Sequence record: PQ561394
DNA from: Escherichia phage Ec1-ASingh
Length of the DNA stretch: 42,423 nucleotides
Direction: 5' to 3' (one strand)
A model generated the notes under the pieces. The model searched no databases and was not told where the DNA came from. It saw only the letters and a list, made by a program, of their open reading frames with translations. A program made the position numbers and the translations under genes. Positions within the stretch are counted from its first letter, which is position 1. Each line of letters begins with the position of its first letter. Shown one piece after another: positions 1 through 39,278 of this stretch.

Positions 1-900
1 ATGACCGCATCTGTATTGAACCGCATGAACTCCATCGTCGAACAGTATGTTGACGAGGAAGAACTTGACTTTAACGAAGCCACGTCTGGCGGTGGTAAGC
101 TGCTGCCGGAAGGTAAGGCACTGGCGCGACTGGTTGGCTACATTGAAGTGGGGCCGAGCGTGACCAAGCAGGCACCGGACAAACCGCCAGTCAATAAGTT
201 CTTCCTCCAGTTCGCGCTGTGGGGCAAGGCCAAGAACGGCGAGACTTACCATGAAGTTGTCAATGGTAAGATGGTGCCGGGCAAGGTGCGCACGCAGTTC
301 ATCGCTGTGAAGAAAGACCTGAACAGCAAGTCCGGCGCTTACAAACTGTTCAAGCGTATGAACCCGGACAAGACTGCGAAGCACTTCGCGCAGCTTCTGA
401 ACCACACCTTCATCGTTCCGATTATCCACAACGAATCGGGCGAGGGTGAGAACAAGAAGGTGTACGCCAACATCGACCTTGAGAACATCATGCTCGCGGT
501 TGACCCGGTGACTGACCAGCCGTACCCGGTGCCGGAGGTTGAGGACGAGACGCTGTTCAAGCTGTTCCTGTGGAACCGTCCGACCAAAGAGGACTGGGAA
601 TCCCTGTACATCGAAGGCAAGAACGACGATGGCAAATCCAAGAACTGGATTCAGGACAAGCTGCTGGAATCTCCTGAGTTCCCCGGCTCTCCGCTTGACC
701 TGCTGCTGAACGGCGCTGGTGCTGGCTCGGCAATCGCTGAGCTGCCAGAGCTGGGCGACGTGGGCCAGCCGGAGGAAGTGGCTGAGGTTAAGCAGGAAGT
801 GCAGGAGCTGGCAACGGCTGGCGCGGCTGACAAGTCGGCAGCATCCAAGCCTGAGCCGGACGTGACTGGCGATGCTGACTTCGGCCTGCCGAGTCTGTAA
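1..900 (+). CDS. hypothetical replication-module protein with acidic C-terminal tail (possible ssDNA-binding protein, speculative)
   Basis: 299-aa ORF starting at ATG position 1; coding-like composition; acidic C-terminus ending ...GDADFGLPSL; immediately follows DNA polymerase if the genome is circularised. Confidence 0.55.
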   Translation: MTASVLNRMNSIVEQYVDEEELDFNEATSGGGKLLPEGKALARLVGYIEVGPSVTKQAPDKPPVNKFFLQFALWGKAKNGETYHEVVNGKMVPGKVRTQFIAVKKDLNSKSGAYKLFKRMNPDKTAKHFAQLLNHTFIVPIIHNESGEGENKKVYANIDLENIMLAVDPVTDQPYPVPEVEDETLFKLFLWNRPTKEDWESLYIEGKNDDGKSKNWIQDKLLESPEFPGSPLDLLLNGAGAGSAIAELPELGDVGQPEEVAEVKQEVQELATAGAADKSAASKPEPDVTGDADFGLPSL

Positions 901-935
901 CTGACAATGGCACAGGGATGTGCCGTGGAGGATAC

Positions 936-1133
936 ATGCGAGAGTTAGAGCCGGGCGAGGTTATCGTTTACGACGAGCCTCGCGACATGTGCATGGTAAT
1001 CAAAAGCCGCAGCGAGAGAGTTGAAATGAGCTACGACATGTTCTTCACTTTGAAGAAGATGATTGAGAACATGCTGATGGAGAGAGTGAATGAGCAGATT
1101 GAAACGCTTGCTTCACAATGCCGAGGAACTTGA
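936..1133 (+). CDS. hypothetical small protein
   Basis: 65-aa ORF with GGAGGA 5 nt upstream of ATG 936; overlaps start of the exonuclease ORF, so uncertain. Confidence 0.25.
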   Translation: MRELEPGEVIVYDEPRDMCMVIKSRSERVEMSYDMFFTLKKMIENMLMERVNEQIETLASQCRGT

Positions 1134-2064
1134 TGACCAGTTTGATGGTTACGTGTCTGGTCGTATTCTGCTGTGTGATGCTGACTCGACAGTCTACGTC
1201 GCGGCAGCAACCACGAAGAACATCGAGACGGCGAAGACACGATTCTGTTCCGGGGTACTGACTGCCAAGTTCCTCGCCAATGCTCAGTCAGTTCGTATCG
1301 AGTTGACCGCTGCGGAGTGTACGAAAGCTGGACGGTACAAGCTGCGCGGGGCCAAGCTGTACCAAGGCAACCGAGACAAAGACCGCAAGCCCGGTCTGGT
1401 CGAGCCGTTGCGTAAAGCAATTGGCCGGAACATGTTCAACGTTCCTGATGGTGAGGACTGGTACGTTCACCTGAACTTTGAGTTCGAGGCTGACGACACC
1501 TTAATCATGGACGCGTGGACGATTGGCATTAACGATGCAGTAATCTACAGCGCGGATAAAGACCTGCGCTGCTGGCCGGGCAGGTTCCTCGACCCGTACG
1601 ACAACAAGGTACTGGAGCCGTGCAAAGGTGTTGGCCGTCTGTGGTGGCACGAGACCAAGAGTGACAAGTCGCTGATTGGTCATGGGCCTATCTTCTTTTG
1701 GGCGCAGATGCTGATGGGCGATAGTGCCGACAACATCGCTGGTGTCAAGAAGATTGGTAAGCAGACAGCTTACGATATGCTGGTCGATTATCAGGAGACT
1801 GATGACGAGTCGGCTGTGGCTGAGTTCGTGCTTCGTGAATACATGGTGCGCGACCAGAACCCATGGCCAGAAGCAGTGGCGTTGTGGCTGTACCGCACGC
1901 CGACCTACTCATTCGCAGCCCACCTCAATACGCTGACCTTGAGCAAGGAGCTGCGTGTCTGGCTGCATAAGAAATTGAATGAGGAATGGTATGCGGAAAG
2001 TGACTGGCGCGACCTTGTTGCAGATGCGGAAGAATGCGATGGGCTGTCCTTGCCCACTCTGTAA
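1090..2064 (+). CDS. 5'-3' exonuclease (FEN / T7 gp6-like)
   Basis: N-terminal ILLCDADS acidic cluster and H3TH-like motif GDSADNIAGVKKIGKQTA typical of 5'-3' exonucleases; start codon uncertain. Confidence 0.75.
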   Translation: MSRLKRLLHNAEELDDQFDGYVSGRILLCDADSTVYVAAATTKNIETAKTRFCSGVLTAKFLANAQSVRIELTAAECTKAGRYKLRGAKLYQGNRDKDRKPGLVEPLRKAIGRNMFNVPDGEDWYVHLNFEFEADDTLIMDAWTIGINDAVIYSADKDLRCWPGRFLDPYDNKVLEPCKGVGRLWWHETKSDKSLIGHGPIFFWAQMLMGDSADNIAGVKKIGKQTAYDMLVDYQETDDESAVAEFVLREYMVRDQNPWPEAVALWLYRTPTYSFAAHLNTLTLSKELRVWLHKKLNEEWYAESDWRDLVADAEECDGLSLPTL

Positions 2065-2371
2065 CGAGCCGATGGTAGACCTCAAGCTCATGGTGGTTGA
2101 CCACGACCATGTGAGTGGGGAGATTCGCGGTGTCATCTGTCGCTGGTGTAATGCTCAGCTCGGCAAGGTAGAGAACTCTGCCAACCGAGCGAAGCGCCAG
2201 CGCACAGTTGATGACTGGCTGGACAGCGCCATCGAGTGGCGACGTAAGCAACACACTGGTCTGATGTACCCAACGCACAAGACCGAGGCAGAGAAGAAAG
2301 CGGCGACAGCCGAGAGACGTAAGAAGGCGGCAGCCGCGAAAGCGCGAGCCTTAATCACTAAGGGGAAATGA
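2039..2371 (+). CDS. endonuclease VII-like junction-resolving nuclease
   Basis: Motif CPCPLC...DHDHVSGEIRGVICRWCNAQLG matches Endonuclease_7 signature; GGAAG RBS 6 nt upstream of ATG 2039; overlaps exonuclease 3' end. Confidence 0.75.
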   Translation: MGCPCPLCNEPMVDLKLMVVDHDHVSGEIRGVICRWCNAQLGKVENSANRAKRQRTVDDWLDSAIEWRRKQHTGLMYPTHKTEAEKKAATAERRKKAAAAKARALITKGK

Positions 2372-3495
2372 TGACCAAGTTAACTAATCACCAACTCAAA
2401 GAAGACATTGCCGAAGGGCTTGGCACCAAGGCCATTGCTGAGAAGCATGACATGACCGAGAGCGCCATTCGATACCGGAAGCGCCAGCTTGCCAAGAGCG
2501 GCTGGAGTCCTGAGCACGACATGACGAAGGAAGTGCCGGAGCCATATGCGGTGAAGGGTACGTCCACGCTGTACGATAAGGACGGCAACGTTGTCATGCA
2601 GTGGGTGAAGACTGCACTCGACCGTGAGCAGGAGCTGGCGCTGCTGCAAGAAGCTGTCGATGCAATTAGCGAGAGCATCACCCCGGAAGCTGCCAGACCG
2701 TACGCCGGGGGCGCGGCACCTGCCGAGCTGCTGAACCTGTTCGTGCTGACTGACTACCACCTCGGTATGCTGGCGTGGGCAGAGGAAACTGGTGACGACT
2801 GGGATATGAAGATTGCGGAAGACCTGCTGGTCAAGTGGTTCTCGGCAGCGATTGCCAGTGCGCCGCCAGCGCAGGTTGCTATCTTCGGCCAGCTCGGTGA
2901 CTTCCTACACTGGGATGGGTTGGATGCAGTAACGCCATCGAGTGGGCATGTGCTTGATGCTGACACGCGATTCCAGAAACTGGTGCGTGTGGCTATCAGG
3001 GCGCAGCGCCGCATCATTGGTATGCTGCTGGATAAGTTCCCGCAGGTTCACGTAGTGTGTGCCGAGGGCAACCACGACATGGCCAGCTCAATCTGGATGC
3101 GTGAGCTGCTGCATGTACTGTACGCCGACGAGCCGCGTGTCACTGTTGACCGCAGCCCTGACCCGTACTACTGCTATGAGCATGGCGAGACGGCGCTGTT
3201 CTTCCACCATGGTCACAAGCGTAAGGCAGAACAACTGGAGACTGTACTGGTCGCCAAGTTCCGCGAAGTGTATGGCCGAACCAAACATGCGTATGCACAC
3301 GTTGGCCACCTGCATCACAAGAAGGTGCTGGAGTCTGGTGTCATGATTGTCGAGCAGCACCGTACGCTGGCGGCGAAGGATGCCTATGCCTCCCGTGGTG
3401 GTTGGCTGAGTGAGCGCAGCGCGAGCGTGATTACTTATCATGCCCGGTACGGTGAGGTCGCACGATTCACCATTAGCCCGGAGATGTTGGAGTGA
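2368..3495 (+). CDS. HTH domain fused to calcineurin-like metallophosphoesterase (putative DNA exonuclease)
   Basis: N-terminal HTH-like segment (MTESAIRYRKRQLAKSG); C-terminal motifs DYHLG, GDFLHWD, GNHD, HHGH characteristic of metallophosphoesterases. Confidence 0.6.
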   Translation: MMTKLTNHQLKEDIAEGLGTKAIAEKHDMTESAIRYRKRQLAKSGWSPEHDMTKEVPEPYAVKGTSTLYDKDGNVVMQWVKTALDREQELALLQEAVDAISESITPEAARPYAGGAAPAELLNLFVLTDYHLGMLAWAEETGDDWDMKIAEDLLVKWFSAAIASAPPAQVAIFGQLGDFLHWDGLDAVTPSSGHVLDADTRFQKLVRVAIRAQRRIIGMLLDKFPQVHVVCAEGNHDMASSIWMRELLHVLYADEPRVTVDRSPDPYYCYEHGETALFFHHGHKRKAEQLETVLVAKFREVYGRTKHAYAHVGHLHHKKVLESGVMIVEQHRTLAAKDAYASRGGWLSERSASVITYHARYGEVARFTISPEMLE

Positions 3496-3716
3496 CGAGA
3501 ACACTGTACCAAGAAGATGTGGTGCAGCTCAAAGAGGATGGCCTCTCCATTGAGTGGGAGGCCAACACTCAGGTCGAGCTGTATAAGGATGGCACCGTCT
3601 GCATTTCGCAGGACGGTGAGGAAGTCTGGTTGCCTTGGGCATATGTCCGAGATATTATTTTCGCTCTTGAGGAAGCACACGATGCACATGAAAGACACCG
3701 TAGTAGTAGACCTTGA
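3492..3716 (+). CDS. hypothetical protein
   Basis: 74-aa ORF, GTG start preceded by GGAG; overlaps neighbours on both sides. Confidence 0.4.
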   Translation: MTRTLYQEDVVQLKEDGLSIEWEANTQVELYKDGTVCISQDGEEVWLPWAYVRDIIFALEEAHDAHERHRSSRP

Positions 3717-4209
3717 CGGCACGCTGGCCGATGGCCGTTGGCGTTTACACCTGCTGCCTCCACCGGAGCGTCGGCACCTTGATGAAGCGTGGGCCGAGTT
3801 CAACTTGGCTGGCGCTGACGACCCTGCGTTTCAGGACACGATTGATATTGTGAACGCTCTGGCCCTCACGTATCGCATTATCATCCTGACCGGACGCGGA
3901 GCCGTGGCCCGTGAAGTAACCGAGCAGTGGCTCGACGAAGCTGGTGTGGTTTACGACAAGCTAATCATGAGAGAGATTGGCGACTGCCGTAAAGACACAG
4001 AGATGAAGCTGGCGGCGCTGGAGGACATTGGCATTGAGAACATCGTGTGTGCTTTCGACGACCTGCCGCACATCGTTGACTTCATGCGTGGCCTCGGCAT
4101 CACGGTTTATGAAGTGACCCGGTACGAGGACAATCATGAGTATGTTCATGCCAATGCTAAATACGATGGCGCTGATTCTAAGGTCGATGGAGGTAAGGCG
4201 AATGGGTAA
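3682..4209 (+). CDS. HAD-superfamily phosphatase-like protein
   Basis: Begins MHMKDTVVVDLDGTLADG (DxDGT motif I of HAD hydrolases); GAGGA RBS upstream of ATG 3682. Confidence 0.55.
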   Translation: MHMKDTVVVDLDGTLADGRWRLHLLPPPERRHLDEAWAEFNLAGADDPAFQDTIDIVNALALTYRIIILTGRGAVAREVTEQWLDEAGVVYDKLIMREIGDCRKDTEMKLAALEDIGIENIVCAFDDLPHIVDFMRGLGITVYEVTRYEDNHEYVHANAKYDGADSKVDGGKANG

Positions 4210-4780
4210 GAAAGGTCAGAAGTTTATCTTAGACCCGGCACGCAACTGGGGTACTGGCACGCTGCTGAGCGACATTGCTGAGCAAGGTATCATCCTGACG
4301 TACGACGAACCGTACGATGTGCCGAATGACAGCCGCGATTACTACACCTGCGTGAAGGATGGCAAGACCCACACGCTGGTACTGGAGCCGTTCGAGGTGA
4401 AAGAAGTCGAGACTGCGTTCATCCCGGTTGACCCGTACGACCCGGCCAGTGATGTTGAGGTGGCCGTGGCCAAGAGTGCTGGGCCGGGCGGCATGAAGTT
4501 TGACGGCGGCAAGCCCCGCATGTCACTGCTGTTCGATGGCTGCCCGAATGCACTGGAGGCTGTAGCCAGCGTGCTCACCTTCGGCGCTGAGAAGTATGCA
4601 GCCCACTCGTGGCAGACTGTACCGGAAGGTGAGGAACGCTATAAGTCAGCGCTGCTCCGGCACCTGACGGCGGTGGGCAAGGGTGAGGAACTGGATAGCG
4701 AATCCAACCTGCACCATCTGGCGCACGCTGCGTGCAATGCGCTGTTCATTCTGGAACTCGAATTAAGGAAACGCAAATGA
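4202..4780 (+). CDS. hypothetical protein; C-terminal half resembles phage dATP/dGTP pyrophosphohydrolase N-domain (low confidence)
   Basis: GGAGGT RBS before ATG 4202; C-terminal pattern GGKPRMSLL...LTFGAEKYA...W...ALLRHL...HLAHAACNALFILE recalled as typical of phage nucleotide pyrophosphohydrolase-associated domain. Confidence 0.5.
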   Translation: MGKKGQKFILDPARNWGTGTLLSDIAEQGIILTYDEPYDVPNDSRDYYTCVKDGKTHTLVLEPFEVKEVETAFIPVDPYDPASDVEVAVAKSAGPGGMKFDGGKPRMSLLFDGCPNALEAVASVLTFGAEKYAAHSWQTVPEGEERYKSALLRHLTAVGKGEELDSESNLHHLAHAACNALFILELELRKRK

Positions 4781-4953
4781 GTGTTTTACTTTGGATTGTA
4801 GCTGTGGTATGGTTTGCCCTGTTCTCTGTTGTCTGTCTGGCTGCGTGCGACCAGTACAACAAGACACATGTTGACAGGTCTGGTGCAGCAGGCTTTATCC
4901 TGTGGGTATTCTTGGCTGTCATCCCTGCTATTCTGTTTGCCTGTCTTGCGTAG
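4777..4953 (+). CDS. small two-TM membrane protein
   Basis: 58 aa, AAGGAAA RBS, ATGA overlap with upstream stop; two hydrophobic helices (LLWIVAVVWFALFSVVCLAA / FILWVFLAVIPAILFACLA). Confidence 0.5.
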   Translation: MSVLLWIVAVVWFALFSVVCLAACDQYNKTHVDRSGAAGFILWVFLAVIPAILFACLA

Positions 4954-4961
4954 GAGATTGT

Positions 4962-5276
4962 ATGAGTCGTTATCAAAGAGCCATTGACGACACGGTGGTT
5001 GACCATAAAGTGTGCGGTGCCTGCATGGGTAGCGGCACCTATCGTGGCATGTTGATTGGTGGGCAGGTAGTCCTGATGGATTGTGAAGCCTGCGGCGGTA
5101 CGGGTACGAATGACCCGACACTGCAACATTCTGTACTGAGTGACTTAGGCCAGCGCAAACAAGCGCAGCCGGGATATGACGAGCCGGGCAAGCCATCATA
5201 CGGTGTAGGTCTCGTTGAGCAGTACGCCGAAGACGGCAAGCTGATTGAGCACCTGAGCAAACAAGTTAAGGAGTAG
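4962..5276 (+). CDS. small DnaJ-type zinc-finger protein
   Basis: AGGAG RBS 7 nt upstream; two CxxCxGxG repeats (CGACMGSG, CEACGGTG). Confidence 0.55.
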   Translation: MSRYQRAIDDTVVDHKVCGACMGSGTYRGMLIGGQVVLMDCEACGGTGTNDPTLQHSVLSDLGQRKQAQPGYDEPGKPSYGVGLVEQYAEDGKLIEHLSKQVKE

Positions 5277-5278
5277 TC

Positions 5279-7711
5279 GTGGATTTACTTGCAGAGCAGA
5301 TTCGACTTGAAGAAGAAGCGCGAGCCAGACACCGCGAGGGCTGGCTGGATAATATCAAAGAGGCGATGGCCAGTGGCCGCGCCGGGTCGGTGCCGTTGCT
5401 CCAGCGTATGATGGTTGAGGCTTATCCTCTGGTCGAAGCTGCGATGCAAGAAACCCTGAGCGAAACGACCCGTGGGTATGGTGCGCAGTACCGGACGTAC
5501 ATGCGTGAGATTGGCACCAAAGCGTGTGCCTCTCTCGCACTGAGCATGGCGGTGTCCGGTGCTGCGTCGGAGCAGGCGGTACTGAGTCTGCTCAAGAGCA
5601 TGGGCAAGGCACTGATGGCTGAGGTGGTGTATCTCCGGGCGAAGCAGACCGGGCCACAGCAGGCGGCGTACATGGAGCGCGTTAAGCAAGACGTGAAGAA
5701 GTCTCGCTCGAAGTCAGCGAACCACGTCTACAATAAAGCGCGTGCGTCGGCGGCGAACGTTGGGGTAGAGATTGATGTGCTGCCGCAGCGTGCGCTGATT
5801 ACCATCGGCAAGCTGATGATGAAGTGCGTCGAGCCAACTGGTCTGGTGTCCACGATTCGCGTCGGCGGCAACCAGCGCCAGCGCGGTACGGCACACTTCG
5901 CCCTGCATGAAGATGTGCTGGCTACGATGAACGACTGGCTGGACATGCCGCGTGCTGATGGCATGTGCTGCCCACCGCTGATTATCCCACCGAAGCAGAT
6001 TGCCCCGAACGGTCGCAGCGGCATGTGGCATTCCGATGGGCAGGCAGCGATGTACCGGGTCATGAGTCGCATGAACCACAAAGGGTATCGTGCATTGAAC
6101 GTTGACCCGACCCCCGTTATAGAGCCGTGTATGATGCTCAGCAGCGTTCCGTACCGAGTTAACCCAATGGTACTGGAGTTCCTGCGAACGAACCGTACAG
6201 GCGTTATGGGGCTGCCTGTGCCACCTCGTGAGCCTACACTTCCGTTCACCATCCCCGCTGGTGTGAGCTTTGCACAGTACATCAGCAAGTTCCCACCAGA
6301 GATGCAGCAGCAGATGGATGCCGAAGCTCATGAGTACAAGGTGAAGACTCGCTTGTATTACAATGAGTTGCGTAAGTTCACGTCGCAGATGCTGGCGTTG
6401 AATGGTGCAGTCAAAGAGGCAGAAAGGTATGCGCAGTACGATAGGATTTATCTCCCGACTTACGCCGATACGCGGGGCCGAATTTATTATTCTTCGACCC
6501 TTAACCCTCAGTCTATCGACGCAGTGCGAGCGCTGCTTGAACTTGCGGAACCAGTGGCTCTCGGAACTGAGGGGCTGTTCTGGCTCAAGGTTCATGTTGC
6601 GAATTGTTTCGGCTACGACGCAACAGACTTCGACGACCGGGCGGCGTGGACGGACAAGACACTCCCCCGACTACGTGAGGCGTGCCGTCTTCCAGAGGCA
6701 TTTGATTCGTTCTGGTCAGAAGCCGATAGCCCTATCAGCGCGTGGGCTGCCTCTGTTGAACTCATTCGCGCTATCGACTCAGGAAGTCCTGAGACTTATC
6801 CCTGCCGAGTGGTTACGCAATGGGACGCTACCTGTTCAGGATTACAGCACCTCAGTGCGATGCTACGAGATGAAGTTGGCGGTGCTGCTGTCAATCTTAT
6901 CAATAGCGTGGGAAGAAAAGCAGACATATATCTCAAGACGGCAGCAGCGGCGATGCAGGCTCTTGAAGATAGTGAAGCGCAGTCACCGACGCAGATGGGT
7001 ACGTGGCTTGTTTCAATCGGTATTGTCCGGGCGATGGCTAAGAAGCCAGTGATGACCTACGTGTACGGGGCAACCCGGCACGGTATGGTGGACTACTACT
7101 GCCTGTATCTACGAGAGAACCGGGTCAAGCTGCCGGACGGCAAGAGCCTGCTGGAGTGTGCGCAGTTCATCGCAGAGTTCATGTGGAATGCAATCCCTCG
7201 CGTTGTGCCGAAGGCGGCAGAGCTGATGGCATGGTTGCAGGCTATCGCGGTTGAAGCGGCAGCCAACGGCGAGTACGTGGAAATCATCGCACCGTCAGGG
7301 TTGCGGGTGGTTAATCTGTATCAAGCCAGCAAGGAGACGATGCTCAACAACATCAACCTCATGGGTATCCACAGCATTAAGCTGCGCGAGTATCTGGACA
7401 AGCCGGACGGCAGGAAGTGTGCCGCTGCGATTGCTCCGAATTTCGTACACGCCATGGATGCCAGCCACATGATGAAGGTGTTGTGGGAGATGTGGAATAA
7501 CGGGGTGTACATGGTGTCCATCCACGATTCGTTCGGGGTGGCGGCTGCACATGCCGGGTTACTCCACAAGGTCATTCGTGAAAAGTTCGTACAGATGTAT
7601 GAGCAACATGACCCAATTCAACAACTTGCTGTACGATACAATGCTGTTGCACCTGAACGGGGCAATCTGGATATCCAGCTTGTGAAACAATCAAGCAAGT
7701 TTTTCTGCTGA
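5279..7711 (+). CDS. single-subunit DNA-dependent RNA polymerase (T7-like)
   Basis: 810 aa; [26 protein letters not shown] matches T7 RNAP catalytic motif ([20 protein letters not shown]); HDSFG motif C present; GTG start after AAGGAG. Confidence 0.95.
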   Translation: [810 protein letters not shown]

Positions 7712-7739
7712 TAAATAGTGATATGTATCATTGACTTAA

Positions 7740-7760
7740 ATGAAAGTGTCTATAGTGATA
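7740..7760 (+). promoter_or_regulatory. conserved motif ATGAAAGTGTCTATAGTGATA (candidate phage-RNAP promoter for late genes)
   Basis: Located in the RNAP-structural intergenic region; followed by palindrome GTGATAGATATCAC; recurs at 8009, 35978 and inverted at 29428. Confidence 0.4.
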
Positions 7761-7821
7761 GATATCACGCTACCGGTAGCCCCGTCAGTGGCGGGGGTTG
7801 CTGCCACTAAGAGAGGATTGT

Positions 7822-8007
7822 ATGGGTAAAGAATCTCCACTTGAAAGAGTTCAGTTCACTAAAGCACAGTTAGCTCTACTGGAGAAGCACTTCGGTACAT
7901 GGTCTCAGGTAGGTAAGACAGTCACTCCCGACACTAACCTACCTCTGATTAACAGAGAGGCTGGTAAGCAAGACGTTCTGGATTTCATCAGAGAAAGAGT
8001 GATTTGA
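7822..8007 (+). CDS. hypothetical protein
   Basis: 61 aa; GAGAGGA RBS 4 nt upstream of ATG 7822. Confidence 0.45.
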   Translation: MGKESPLERVQFTKAQLALLEKHFGTWSQVGKTVTPDTNLPLINREAGKQDVLDFIRERVI

Positions 8008-8008
8008 A

Positions 8009-8428
8009 ATGAAAGTGTCTACTATGGGAAATACATCACACACGACGATGCCACTCGACATTCGCCGTGCTGTGGCCGAAGGCATTCAAGCTGAGCGGCC
8101 ATGGTCAGACCTATCTCCCGATGTGATTGTTGACAGCATGTACGAGGCCACCGCCTCCGGTTGCGTTGACGTTTACATCACTGCCGATGACGGCAGCCTC
8201 ATGGCTGTCGCTCACATCGGCAGGTTATTCGATATTCATGTGGGCGAGATGGTGGTCGTTATGGCCTCATACGTCTGGCCCCAGTACAGAAACCGTGGAG
8301 TGATGCGTGCCATCCTCCGTGTACTCAAAGACGTGGCCCGTTCAGCGGGTGTGCGTTGGTGCGGTTACTCCCATATGGTGCGGCCTTACGTTCAGGAGTA
8401 CCGCTTCATTGATTTGGAGAAACCGTAA
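8009..8428 (+). CDS. GNAT-like N-acetyltransferase (putative)
   Basis: 139 aa; segment VWPQYRNRGVMRAILRVLKDVARSAG resembles GNAT motif A (acetyl-CoA binding); start overlaps conserved ATGAAAGTGTCTA motif so true start may be ATG 8024. Confidence 0.45.
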   Translation: MKVSTMGNTSHTTMPLDIRRAVAEGIQAERPWSDLSPDVIVDSMYEATASGCVDVYITADDGSLMAVAHIGRLFDIHVGEMVVVMASYVWPQYRNRGVMRAILRVLKDVARSAGVRWCGYSHMVRPYVQEYRFIDLEKP

Positions 8429-8688
8429 TGGGTAGCGTAGGCAAAGTATTCAAGGGCATTGGCTCCGTCTTCGGACTGGGTAGCCAAAAGCCGCAGTACA
8501 CTATCAAGACTGACCCGGCGCAGGTCAAGGCAGAAACCATGCAGGCTAACCTTGCAGCCGACCTCGCTGGTGAGAACACCCCAACCATTCAGGCAGGTGG
8601 CCAAGTAAGCTCGGCCTCTGATACGCTGGGTGGTCGCCGCCGTCGCACCGGAACTGGTGTGGCAAGTAACCTCGGCATTGGGAGCTAA
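8428..8688 (+). CDS. hypothetical small Gly-rich protein (possible virion protein)
   Basis: 86 aa; TAATG overlap with upstream gene; position just before portal. Confidence 0.5.
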   Translation: MGSVGKVFKGIGSVFGLGSQKPQYTIKTDPAQVKAETMQANLAADLAGENTPTIQAGGQVSSASDTLGGRRRRTGTGVASNLGIGS

Positions 8689-39130: not shown

Positions 39131-39278
39131 GCAGGCTACCATCCGGGCGCAGTACCGGAAGGGTGATGCGTTCCGTGGTGCTGAGGCGCTGGCTGAGCGA
39201 TTCAATGTGCCGCCTGCTGATGTGGTGGCAGTAGTGAACTTCACTTATCGTAAGGGGAAACAGAAGCATGACAAGTAA
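39087..39278 (+). CDS. small HTH (sigma-70 region-4-like) DNA-binding protein
   Basis: 63 aa; GGAG RBS; LNQREQATIRAQYRKGDAFRGAEALAERFNVPPADVVAVV resembles region-4/LuxR-type HTH. Confidence 0.45.
   Translation: MEERTYRAAPLNQREQATIRAQYRKGDAFRGAEALAERFNVPPADVVAVVNFTYRKGKQKHDK

Follow-up and report, generated by a model that had tools for sequence, protein, structure and literature searches.

The DUF5664 (dGTP_diPhyd_N) family owes its name to MazZ, a protein of Z-genome phages. In Acinetobacter phage SH-Ab 15497, MazZ is a dATP/dGTP diphosphohydrolase in which an N-terminal DUF5664 domain is followed by DUF550 (PF04447), and its gene adjoins those for PurZ and DatZ. The conversion of dNTP to dNMP and PPi is known for the whole fusion protein (PMC12884076). 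In 2026, the same reaction was reported for a stand-alone DUF5664 protein, gp51 of Arthrobacter phage Wayne (ALY10775.1), which acts on dATP, dUTP, and dGTP in this order of preference, with a Km of 20 μM and a kcat of 0.48 s-1 for dATP (PMC12884076). Wayne gp51 lies beside PurZ0, in a Z-genome (2-aminoadenine) pathway. Among HAD phosphatases, T4 polynucleotide kinase/phosphatase (Pnk, PseT; 1ltq and 5uj0) and Pnkp1 of the bacterial Pnkp1-Rnl-Hen1 complex (4xrp; PMC4411300) are RNA-repair enzymes with solved structures. Pnkp1 carries a kinase domain and is part of a heterohexamer that also contains a ligase and a methyltransferase. Depletion of a nucleotide by a phage dNTP pyrophosphatase together with dNMP phosphatases also has a precedent (PMC12697855).

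The stretch of DNA analyzed here, called the window, is the 42,423-nucleotide sequence of Escherichia phage Ec1-ASingh (PQ561394). The window is assigned to Bonnellvirus (Autographiviridae), as a phiKMV-like, T7-like coliphage. The megetsur genome is 98% identical to it, and Enterobacter phage BHUENT7 is 100% identical at this locus. The original prediction placed two adjacent genes at 3682-4780. Both are found there, on the + strand, and annotations for both already exist in relatives. The genes are ordered as 5'-3' exonuclease, endonuclease VII, metallophosphoesterase, HAD phosphatase, DUF5664 protein, and RNA polymerase (Table 1). Smaller reading frames lie in between. The 74-aa ORF overlapping the HAD gene has no PHROG family match, and its sole Pfam match is a marginal one to IN_DBD_C (22 bits). 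Family searches with the 58-aa hydrophobic protein gave no match, and the segment encoding it differs between relatives. The 104-aa CXXC protein matches DnaJ_CXXCXGXG with an E-value of 0.0012, under the Pfam cut-off. A promoter and terminator scan of positions 1-8500 gave signal no better than that of shuffled sequence.

Table 1. Positions in the window of the two genes, their domains and motifs, and the flanking genes.
Feature	Position	Strand	Basis or remark
HTH and metallophosphoesterase "DNA repair exonuclease" gene	2368..3495	+	phrog_704, E 2.1e-146; Pfam Metallophos match weak
74-aa ORF that overlaps the metallophosphoesterase gene at one end and the HAD gene at the other	3492..3716	+	ORF list; annotated in megetsur
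HAD phosphatase gene, 175 aa	3682..4209	+	Pfam HAD_PNKP, phrog_415
HAD motif I, DLDGT, aa 10-14	3709..3723	+	Sequence reading; aligns with DVDGT of T4 Pnk
DUF5664 protein gene, 192 aa, two domains	4202..4780	+	PF18909, phrog_19680, phrog_801
N-terminal ~90-aa beta-rich SH3-like barrel (predicted) and linker	4202..4486	+	
DUF5664/dGTP_diPhyd_N domain, helical bundle, proposed catalytic	4487..4777	+	PF18909
Hydrophobic small protein, 58 aa	4777..4953	+	Its start and the DUF5664 gene stop overlap in ATGA
CXXC zinc-finger protein, 104 aa	4962..5276	+	phrog_6060 "anti-termination protein Q-like", E 1e-14
Phage RNA polymerase gene	5279..7711		Just downstream of the CXXC zinc-finger gene

The HAD gene starts with ATG at 3682, with GAGGAAG at 3669-3675, 6 nt 5' of the start, and stops with TAA at 4207-4209. 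Its reading as a DxDGT HAD phosphatase was borne out by profile searches, in which the protein matched Pfam HAD_PNKP (PF25109) with 55 bits (E 1.2e-14; cut-off 27.6 bits) and phrog_415 with an E-value of 8.8e-55. All four motifs of the HAD superfamily are present. Motif I, DxDx(T/V), is D10-L-D12-G-T14, with Asp10 as the predicted nucleophile and Asp12 as the predicted acid/base; motifs II to IV are T70 (in T-G-R72), K109, and D126-D127. Among 33 HAD homologues, D10, D12, G13, and T14 show no variation, T70, R72, K109, and D126 are likewise invariant, and D127 is kept in at least 90%. The family profile searched against the PDB matched Pnkp1 best (4xrp, E 9e-18), followed by T4 Pnk (5uj0, E 2e-11; 1ltq, E 6e-10). 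In the profile alignment, the DxDGT motif is in register with D165/D167 of T4 Pnk, T70-G-R72 with S211-G-R213, R103-K-D105...K109 with R252-K-D254...K258, and D126-D127 with D277-D278, where the T4 residue numbers are counted off the alignment. In the 33 homologues, these positions, R103-K-D105 included, vary little or not at all. The functional roles given to the T4 residues are those of the T4 Pnk literature. The window protein falls in the same HAD_PNKP sub-family, and its expected chemistry is that of T4 Pnk, Mg2+-dependent removal of 3'-phosphate via an acyl-phosphate on the first Asp.

Unlike T4 Pnk, the window protein has no N-terminal P-loop 5'-kinase domain; its Pfam matches are of HAD type only. 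The same is seen in the best 120 of its 260 homologues, which are 149-264 aa long and contain only HAD-type Pfam domains. To judge from its sequence, the gene encodes a stand-alone, kinase-less phosphatase of the T4 Pnk/Pnkp1 type with intact catalytic motifs. Since the protein is only 175 aa long and has no kinase domain, the label "polynucleotide kinase" is wrong for it. No functional study of HAD-only phage phosphatases turned up in the literature searched.

For the downstream gene, the longest ORF begins at 4136, but it is the ATG at 4202 that has a ribosome-binding site (GGAGGT at 4189-4194, 7-nt spacer) and is taken as the true start. The stop is TGA at 4778-4780. The near-identical megetsur carries an identical gene call. 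The start overlaps the end of the HAD gene by 8 nt. The C-terminal half, at aa ~97-192, matches PF18909 with 113.3 bits (E 5.5e-33; gathering cut-off 27 bits), as had been proposed from the sequence, and the isolated domain matches it with an E-value of 8e-34. The whole protein matches phrog_19680 (E 2.8e-79) and phrog_801, "dATP/dGTP pyrophosphohydrolase" (E 4.8e-47). Pfam and PHROG scores are far above chance for both this protein and the HAD protein, and hundreds of homologues exist for each. The two proteins are assigned above the Pfam cut-offs to the kinds of families that the original prediction had named.

The AlphaFold2 model of the 192-aa protein has a mean pLDDT of 87, and that of the DUF5664 domain alone has a pLDDT of 93 and a pTM of 0.82. 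Klebsiella phage relatives consist of the DUF5664 domain with nearly no N-terminal extension, indicating that the domain is autonomous. The N-terminal SH3-like region is a fast-evolving, exchangeable cassette. A Foldseek search of the full model against the PDB gave weak SH3/KOW matches to this N-terminal domain only. All PDB chains were searched with the protein and with a profile of 42 family sequences, without a meaningful match; there is no solved structure of the DUF5664 domain. The all-alpha NTP pyrophosphohydrolases (MazG, HisE, and dimeric dUTPase), a superfamily with a four-helix MazG-HisE fold and an acidic metal-binding motif, may be its wider kin; MazG-type enzymes are dimers or tetramers. 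An alignment of the window protein, Wayne gp51, SH-Ab 15497 MazZ, and 11 other family members contains 12 invariant positions (G128, K131, Y132, W137, A150, R153, H154, G161, E162, D165, E167, and H172).

The window protein shares all 12 of these positions with both Wayne gp51 and SH-Ab 15497 MazZ. It resembles Wayne gp51 in its PF18909 score (110.8 bits for Wayne) and in its layout, with an N-terminal region of ~97 aa before the DUF5664 domain. In contrast, the two proteins are 43% identical over only 77 aa (E 1e-10), their N-terminal regions are unrelated, and the K-x-D-x-G-K-x-R motif at the domain start, strongly conserved in the clade of the window protein, is missing from Wayne gp51. Because of this low identity, and because Wayne is a Z-genome phage, the substrate preference may differ from that of Wayne gp51. 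The DUF5664 domain of SH-Ab 15497 MazZ is 37% identical (E 2e-12), including G-x-K-F-D, but the Pfam search found no PF04447 in the window protein, and hhalign detected no relationship between the DUF5664 profile and the DUF550 half of MazZ. The proposal of a "dNTP pyrophosphohydrolase-like" protein has gained strength, as a stand-alone DUF5664 homologue has that activity (PMC12884076). By analogy with this homologue, the 192-aa protein is a predicted dNTP pyrophosphohydrolase.

The HAD protein ends in "KYDG...DGGK", which is similar to the way the DUF5664 domain begins. A duplication scar was considered and dropped, as a K-[YH]-[DG]-x-DK tail is an ordinary HAD C-terminus in relatives.

The two genes are found together in 10 of the 80 loci selected by DUF5664 and in 18 of the 80 selected by HAD. 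Their adjacency is limited to syntenic phiKMV-like phages. DUF5664 occurs in 820 phage records and 20,416 protein clusters, with HAD nearby in a minority of the loci examined, and HAD is found without DUF5664 in ~60 of 80 loci, chiefly in Webervirus. Among HAD loci that bear an RNA polymerase gene, 16 of 17 contain the pair in the same order, and Ralstonia phage Reminis also carries it. One metagenomic relative, P0148, has a fused HAD-DUF5664 ORF of 267 aa at the syntenic position. It is a singleton, from one contig in one sample, read set SRR7122376, and there is no other fusion among the best 120 matches. Recurrent fusion as Rosetta-stone evidence was dropped, P0148 being the only case. The gene most widely conserved next to HAD is that of the metallophosphoesterase, which lies directly upstream in 42 of the 80 HAD-selected loci, including those of Webervirus siphophages (~40% identity). 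Webervirus phages have a dNMP kinase gene after those for the metallophosphoesterase and the HAD protein, in keeping with a nucleotide-salvage or pool setting. The evidence for coupling of the HAD and DUF5664 genes is weak. This distribution, with the pair limited to syntenic phiKMV-like phages and each gene abundant alone, does not support the joint nucleotide-pool or end-repair module of the original prediction. Even so, the 8-nt overlap, the conservation in 16 of 17 loci, the Reminis pair, and the fused ORF leave room for real cooperation.

The explanation that we consider probable is that they are two separate enzymes in a conserved DNA-metabolism gene block of this Bonnellvirus phage. Cotranscription of the genes is probable, and translational coupling may occur, but the products would not be obligate partners. 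By homology, the HAD enzyme would be Mg2+-dependent, with an aspartyl-phosphate intermediate on Asp10 and no 5'-kinase activity. We infer that it strips 3'-phosphates off DNA (or RNA) ends and 3'-nucleotides. The resulting 3'-OH ends could serve polymerase and exonucleases in host-DNA breakdown, recombination, and replication. The DUF5664 enzyme would split the alpha-beta phosphate linkage of (d)NTPs, giving dNMP and PPi, with E162, D165, E167, H154, H172, K131, and R153 as likely metal or phosphate ligands. Its role would be to trim or clean the dNTP pool, with dATP, dUTP, and dGTP as candidate substrates by analogy with the tested homologue. The SH3-like N-domain would be an exchangeable accessory module outside the catalytic core.

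Several other readings bring the two proteins together. Sequential or complexed destruction of one nucleotide, with the DUF5664 enzyme turning a (d)NTP into (d)NMP and PPi and the HAD enzyme turning the (d)NMP into a nucleoside, is unlikely. An unwanted, damaged, or defense-generated nucleotide would be the one destroyed, and the variable N-domain would tune the targeting. The gene overlap, the kept order in the RNA-polymerase-bearing loci and Reminis, the fused protein at the syntenic position, and the precedent of a phage dNTP pyrophosphatase working with dNMP phosphatases (PMC12697855) are consistent with it. However, the fusion is a singleton, and as the two genes overlap, one indel would be enough to produce it. 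The adjacency may reflect shared descent only, as a single syntenic lineage holds the pair. The majority of DUF5664 genes have no HAD neighbor, and the branch in which the HAD protein falls is that of polynucleotide 3'-phosphatases, not one of the 5'-nucleotidase branches. It is more doubtful still that the two are physical or functional partners, as the one fused ORF hints, eliminating a (d)NTP that is defense-generated or non-canonical, or else a 5'-triphosphate end, with the swapped SH3-like cassette adapting to host or defense factors. If such a partnership were true, it would be a new counter-defense or pool-editing module, widespread in phiKMV-like phages. As for 5'-triphosphate ends in particular, the DUF5664 enzyme would convert them to 5'-monophosphates with release of PPi, and the 3'-phosphatase would complete 5'-P/3'-OH ends as T4 Pnk does. 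The adjacent 3'-end-healing enzyme, the one fused ORF, and the same alpha-beta cleavage are circumstantial points in favor, but the tested homologue cleaves free dNTPs with a micromolar Km, DUF5664 proteins belong to clear nucleotide-pool pathways in Z-genome phages, and the gene after HAD in Webervirus encodes a dNMP kinase, not a polynucleotide kinase. This makes action on such ends highly improbable.

The original prediction also offered an RNA/nucleotide repair or anti-defense toolkit that includes the nucleotidyltransferase at 39268. In an RNA or tRNA form of it, the HAD enzyme would heal the 2',3'-cyclic phosphate or 3'-phosphate ends that anticodon nucleases of the host produce, the nucleotidyltransferase would rebuild 3' ends, and the DUF5664 protein would be in support. 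Among proteins of solved structure, those closest to the HAD protein, T4 Pnk and Pnkp1 (PMC4411300), are indeed RNA-repair enzymes. The nucleotidyltransferase gene is real (phrog_1614, E 3.5e-43), and its product weakly resembles the head domain of CCA-adding enzyme or poly(A) polymerase, but nothing ties it specifically to the HAD and DUF5664 genes. It lies ~6.8 kb away around the permuted genome, and the genes in between include those for DNA polymerase, exonuclease, endonuclease VII, and the metallophosphoesterase. PDB sequence searches with the nucleotidyltransferase and the metallophosphoesterase were empty. A crude regex scan of + strand ORFs of at least 80 aa, which a highly divergent ligase could escape, gave no KxDGxR ligase motif and one genuine Walker A motif, that of the helicase; another Walker A match, within the 1..897 ORF, looks accidental. 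Neither a ligase nor Hen1 is annotated in close relatives, the 98%-identical megetsur included. These searches gave no partner RNA ligase of the T4 type in the window and none of the partners of Pnkp1. The steady neighbor of the HAD gene is a DNA-type metallophosphoesterase nuclease gene, joined by the dNMP kinase gene in Webervirus. PADLOC and NCBIfam scans gave nothing informative; PADLOC, whose library consists of defense proteins, not anti-defense proteins, had no match, which says little about an anti-defense role, and no other analysis pointed to such a role. T4-like healing and sealing of RNA from phage genes alone is not supported, as no polynucleotide kinase or ligase was found in the window, and the toolkit as a whole is very unlikely. 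A modified-base pathway for the DUF5664 protein (2-aminoadenine or similar), suggested by the origin of the family name and by the position of Wayne gp51 next to PurZ0, is hardly credible. Tblastn of PurZ, PurZ0, DatZ, DmtZ-DutZ, and the DUF550 region against the whole window gave nothing at E < 0.1 other than the DUF5664 domain itself, full-length MazZ matched positions 4490-4744 alone, and the protein has no PF04447. With PurZ missing, Z-DNA synthesis by this phage is not supported either.

Both genes are real but unremarkable in phages of this group, with nothing to show that they form a joint repair or anti-defense kit. As it stands, the finding is a routine annotation of a sequenced phage lineage with some curation value. 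The product labeled "polynucleotide kinase" across hundreds of phage genomes would be a phosphatase only. The labels "phosphodiesterase", "hypothetical", and even "endolysin" are attached to a gene of a family with a demonstrated dNTP pyrophosphohydrolase member.

A lytic phage needs dNTPs, yet the DUF5664 enzyme is predicted to hydrolyze dATP and dGTP, which is an odd fit. Why many lytic phages with ordinary DNA would encode an enzyme destroying dATP, dGTP, and dUTP is a question raised by this locus, and the free exchange of the N-terminal appendage of DUF5664 proteins is a related one. The E. coli K-12 phages mellemsur and megetsur would be a convenient genetic system for both.

The C-terminal 96 residues of the protein encoded downstream of the HAD gene match PF18909 (dGTP_diPhyd_N, formerly DUF5664) with 113 bits, and the HAD protein itself matches Pfam HAD_PNKP with 55 bits (cut-off 27.6) and phrog_415 with an E-value of 8.8e-55. 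The original prediction of a HAD phosphatase followed by a protein with a dGTP_diPhyd-type C-terminal half was correct, as an observation and in its domain-level reading. The most likely account is that these are two independent enzymes inside a conserved DNA-metabolism block.

The HAD family profile for comparison with PDB was built from 33 homologues. It detected the Pnkp1 structure 4xrp (9e-18) and the phosphatase domain of T4 Pnk (5uj0, 2e-11; 1ltq, 6e-10). In the alignment with T4 Pnk, DLDGT corresponds to DVDGT, T70-G-R72 to S211-G-R213, R103-K-D105...K109 to R252-K-D254...K258, and D126-D127 to D277-D278. The 33 homologues show little or no variation at these positions. The best 120 of 260 homologues are 149-264 aa in length and consist of HAD-type domains alone, and the only genuine Walker A motif in the window is in the helicase. 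Since the motifs are kept, the best 120 homologues are HAD-only and a genuine Walker A motif is absent outside the helicase, the protein is, judged from its sequence, an intact Pnk-type phosphatase without kinase. The catalytic phosphatase motifs are common to the HAD protein and T4 Pnk; of these two, only T4 Pnk has the kinase domain. The records of related phages name the gene "polynucleotide 5'-kinase/3'-phosphatase-like protein", in which "kinase" is a misnomer, and name the second gene "putative phosphodiestherase". The HAD protein would function as a 3'-phosphatase, cleaning 3'-phosphate ends or 3'-nucleotides.

The Pfam name of DUF5664 goes back to MazZ of Acinetobacter phage SH-Ab 15497, in which the domain is an N-terminal appendage and DUF550 comes next; the window protein has no DUF550. 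This absence mattered until 2026. In that year gp51 of Arthrobacter phage Wayne, in which DUF5664 stands alone, was purified and shown to convert dATP, dUTP and dGTP to dNMPs (for dATP, Km 20 uM and kcat 0.48 s-1; PMC12884076). Its layout is that of the window protein, with a ~97-residue N-terminal region preceding DUF5664. Identity of the window domain is 43% with Wayne gp51 (E 1e-10) and 37% with the N-domain of MazZ (E 2e-12). Twelve positions (G128, K131, Y132, W137, A150, R153, H154, G161, E162, D165, E167 and H172) do not vary in a set made up of the window protein, the two tested proteins and 11 further members. It is likely that the second protein is a DUF5664 dNTP pyrophosphohydrolase carrying an exchangeable SH3-like appendage. 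The family is very large, with 20,416 clusters when grouped at 50% identity, and it occurs in 820 phage records. Its members are mostly small proteins, chiefly of phiKMV-like podophages with ordinary DNA. Why canonical-DNA lytic phages carry a dNTP-destroying enzyme is of interest. PHROG families 5033 and 2252, labelled "endolysin; inhibits RNA polymerase", include DUF5664 proteins. The label has passed into many records of Vibrio and Pseudomonas phages, where the gene is called "endolysin"; this looks like a propagated mis-annotation.

The confident AlphaFold2 model of the second protein (pLDDT 87) contains two domains: a beta-rich N-domain and a helical C-domain, connected by a disordered linker (94-97). 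The C-domain modelled alone reached pLDDT 93 and pTM 0.82. The N-domain weakly resembles SH3-like barrels (KOW, NdhS, L21e). Foldseek against PDB gave no match below E 0.09. The top 60 structure matches included no MazG, HisE or dUTPase chain. The PDB sequence-profile search with the DUF5664 family and the hhalign comparison between DUF5664 and DUF550 gave no match. To our knowledge, there is no solved structure of the DUF5664 domain, which adds to the interest of the protein, as does its domain swapping.

The N-terminal domain is common to just 12 of the 120 nearest homologues, in which it shows 45-97% identity, while identity of the C-domain is 86-100%. A further 31 of the 120 show at least 80% identity in the C-domain and have unrelated N-extensions of 7-143 residues; the extension is nearly absent in Klebsiella phage relatives. 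DNA homology to three related phages breaks at 4125-4169, shortly before the HAD stop codon, and returns at 4487-4490, the boundary of the N- and C-domains where DUF5664 starts. Because the N-extensions are unrelated or nearly absent and DNA homology breaks at the boundary, the catalytic domain is considered to be conserved and autonomous, and the appendage to be swapped by recombination. The segment 4170..4486, which takes in the tail of HAD together with the N-terminal domain encoded after it, behaves as an exchangeable cassette. The segment 4782..5280 is likewise variable among relatives.

Genes around the pair are densely packed on the + strand. Promoter and terminator sites in the scan were no more numerous than in shuffled sequence, so the genes of the block are probably co-transcribed. 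For the HAD gene, GAGGAAG ends six nt before the ATG. The longest ORF of the second gene begins at 4136, and the start equipped with a ribosome-binding site (GGAGGT, 4189-4194) is ATG 4202, overlapping the HAD stop codon region by 8 nt. The same call is made in megetsur (98% identity).

Features of the gene block and the distant nucleotidyltransferase gene
Feature	Coordinates	Strand	Family or remark
5'-3' exonuclease	1090..2064	+	
Endonuclease VII	1979..2371	+	
Metallophosphoesterase, 375 aa	2368..3495	+	phrog_704; N-terminal HTH
74-aa ORF	3492..3716	+	marginal IN_DBD_C (SH3-like) match only
HAD gene	3682..4209	+	HAD_PNKP, phrog_415
Second gene, DUF5664	4202..4780	+	PF18909
58-aa hydrophobic ORF	4777..4953	+	
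Zinc-finger ORF, 104 aa	4962..5276	+	two CXXC pairs; phrog_6060
T7-type RNA polymerase	5279..7711	+	GTG start
Nucleotidyltransferase, 227 aa	39268..39951		phrog_1614, E 3.5e-43

The pair had been proposed to form one module. Pairing was examined in both directions, with 80 viral contigs picked by DUF5664 and 80 by the HAD protein. A HAD homologue lies within 5 kb in only 10 of the former, all close enterobacterial phiKMV-like phages. In 18 of the latter, DUF5664 follows directly downstream of HAD; a phage RNA polymerase gene flanks the locus in 17 contigs of this set, and 16 of these are among the 18. Gene order is identical in Ralstonia phage Reminis. Most of the remaining ~60 are Webervirus siphophages of ~50 kb that have HAD and lack DUF5664. 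Thus, by these sequence comparisons, the pairing is a lineage trait, inseparable here from shared descent, and the claim of a module is not upheld. In a metagenomic phiKMV-like contig (Logan SRR7122376), one 267-aa protein encoded at the syntenic position (6001..6804 of the contig) combines HAD and DUF5664; the 120 best homologues include no other fusion. Either the fusion is real or it reflects an indel, since the two genes overlap and a single indel could yield the fused ORF. Cooperation of the two proteins, a reading based on synteny and this one ORF, would be less likely than independent action.

The pairing of the metallophosphoesterase ("DNA repair exonuclease") with HAD is broader than that of HAD with DUF5664. 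Of the 80 HAD-picked loci, 42 have the metallophosphoesterase gene immediately before HAD, in both Autographiviridae/phiKMV-like podophages and Webervirus siphophages (~40% identity); sequence search found no solved homologue. In the Webervirus Klebsiella phage PKP126 (2628..4862 of its locus), metallophosphoesterase and HAD are followed by a gene of phrog_139 (E 1.5e-48) that encodes a dNMP kinase and takes the place of DUF5664. What these neighbours seem to share is a part in breaking down DNA, salvaging nucleotides and handling the pool, and not in the RNA repair originally suggested. T4-style heal-and-seal by phage genes alone is not supported, because a motif scan of + strand ORFs of 80 aa or more in the window found neither a kinase nor a ligase motif. 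The nucleotidyltransferase, proposed as part of the same toolkit, is weakly similar to the poly(A) polymerase/CCA-adding head domain (PolyA_pol/PcnB), and sequence search found no solved homologue. Its gene immediately precedes that of the DNA polymerase, on the far side from the pair, and has no specific link to the pair. The PADLOC scan, whose library holds defence proteins and not anti-defence proteins, gave no match. A Z-genome pathway is very unlikely, because tblastn (E below 0.1) found no PurZ, PurZ0, DatZ, DmtZ-DutZ or DUF550 in the window.

Both proteins are of known kinds, in a phage lineage already sequenced and annotated. The region 3400-5300 is 100% identical to Enterobacter phage BHUENT7, 99.5% to Escherichia phage mellemsur and 98% to megetsur, whose lineage is Autographiviridae, genus Bonnellvirus. 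The megetsur annotation lists no ligase, kinase or nucleotide-biosynthesis genes.

GTGA and ATGA overlaps couple translation of the 74-aa and 58-aa ORFs to that of adjacent genes. Neither protein matched a known family; the 58-aa protein probably has two transmembrane segments. The 104-aa protein has a DnaJ-type zinc finger, its PHROG family is labelled "anti-termination protein Q-like", and its gene ends 3 nt from the RNA polymerase start. A 299-aa protein (1..900), with no match in the Pfam search, belongs to phrog_862 (E 2.3e-76); its gene is flanked by those of the DNA polymerase and the 5'-3' exonuclease and is conserved within the DNA-metabolism block.
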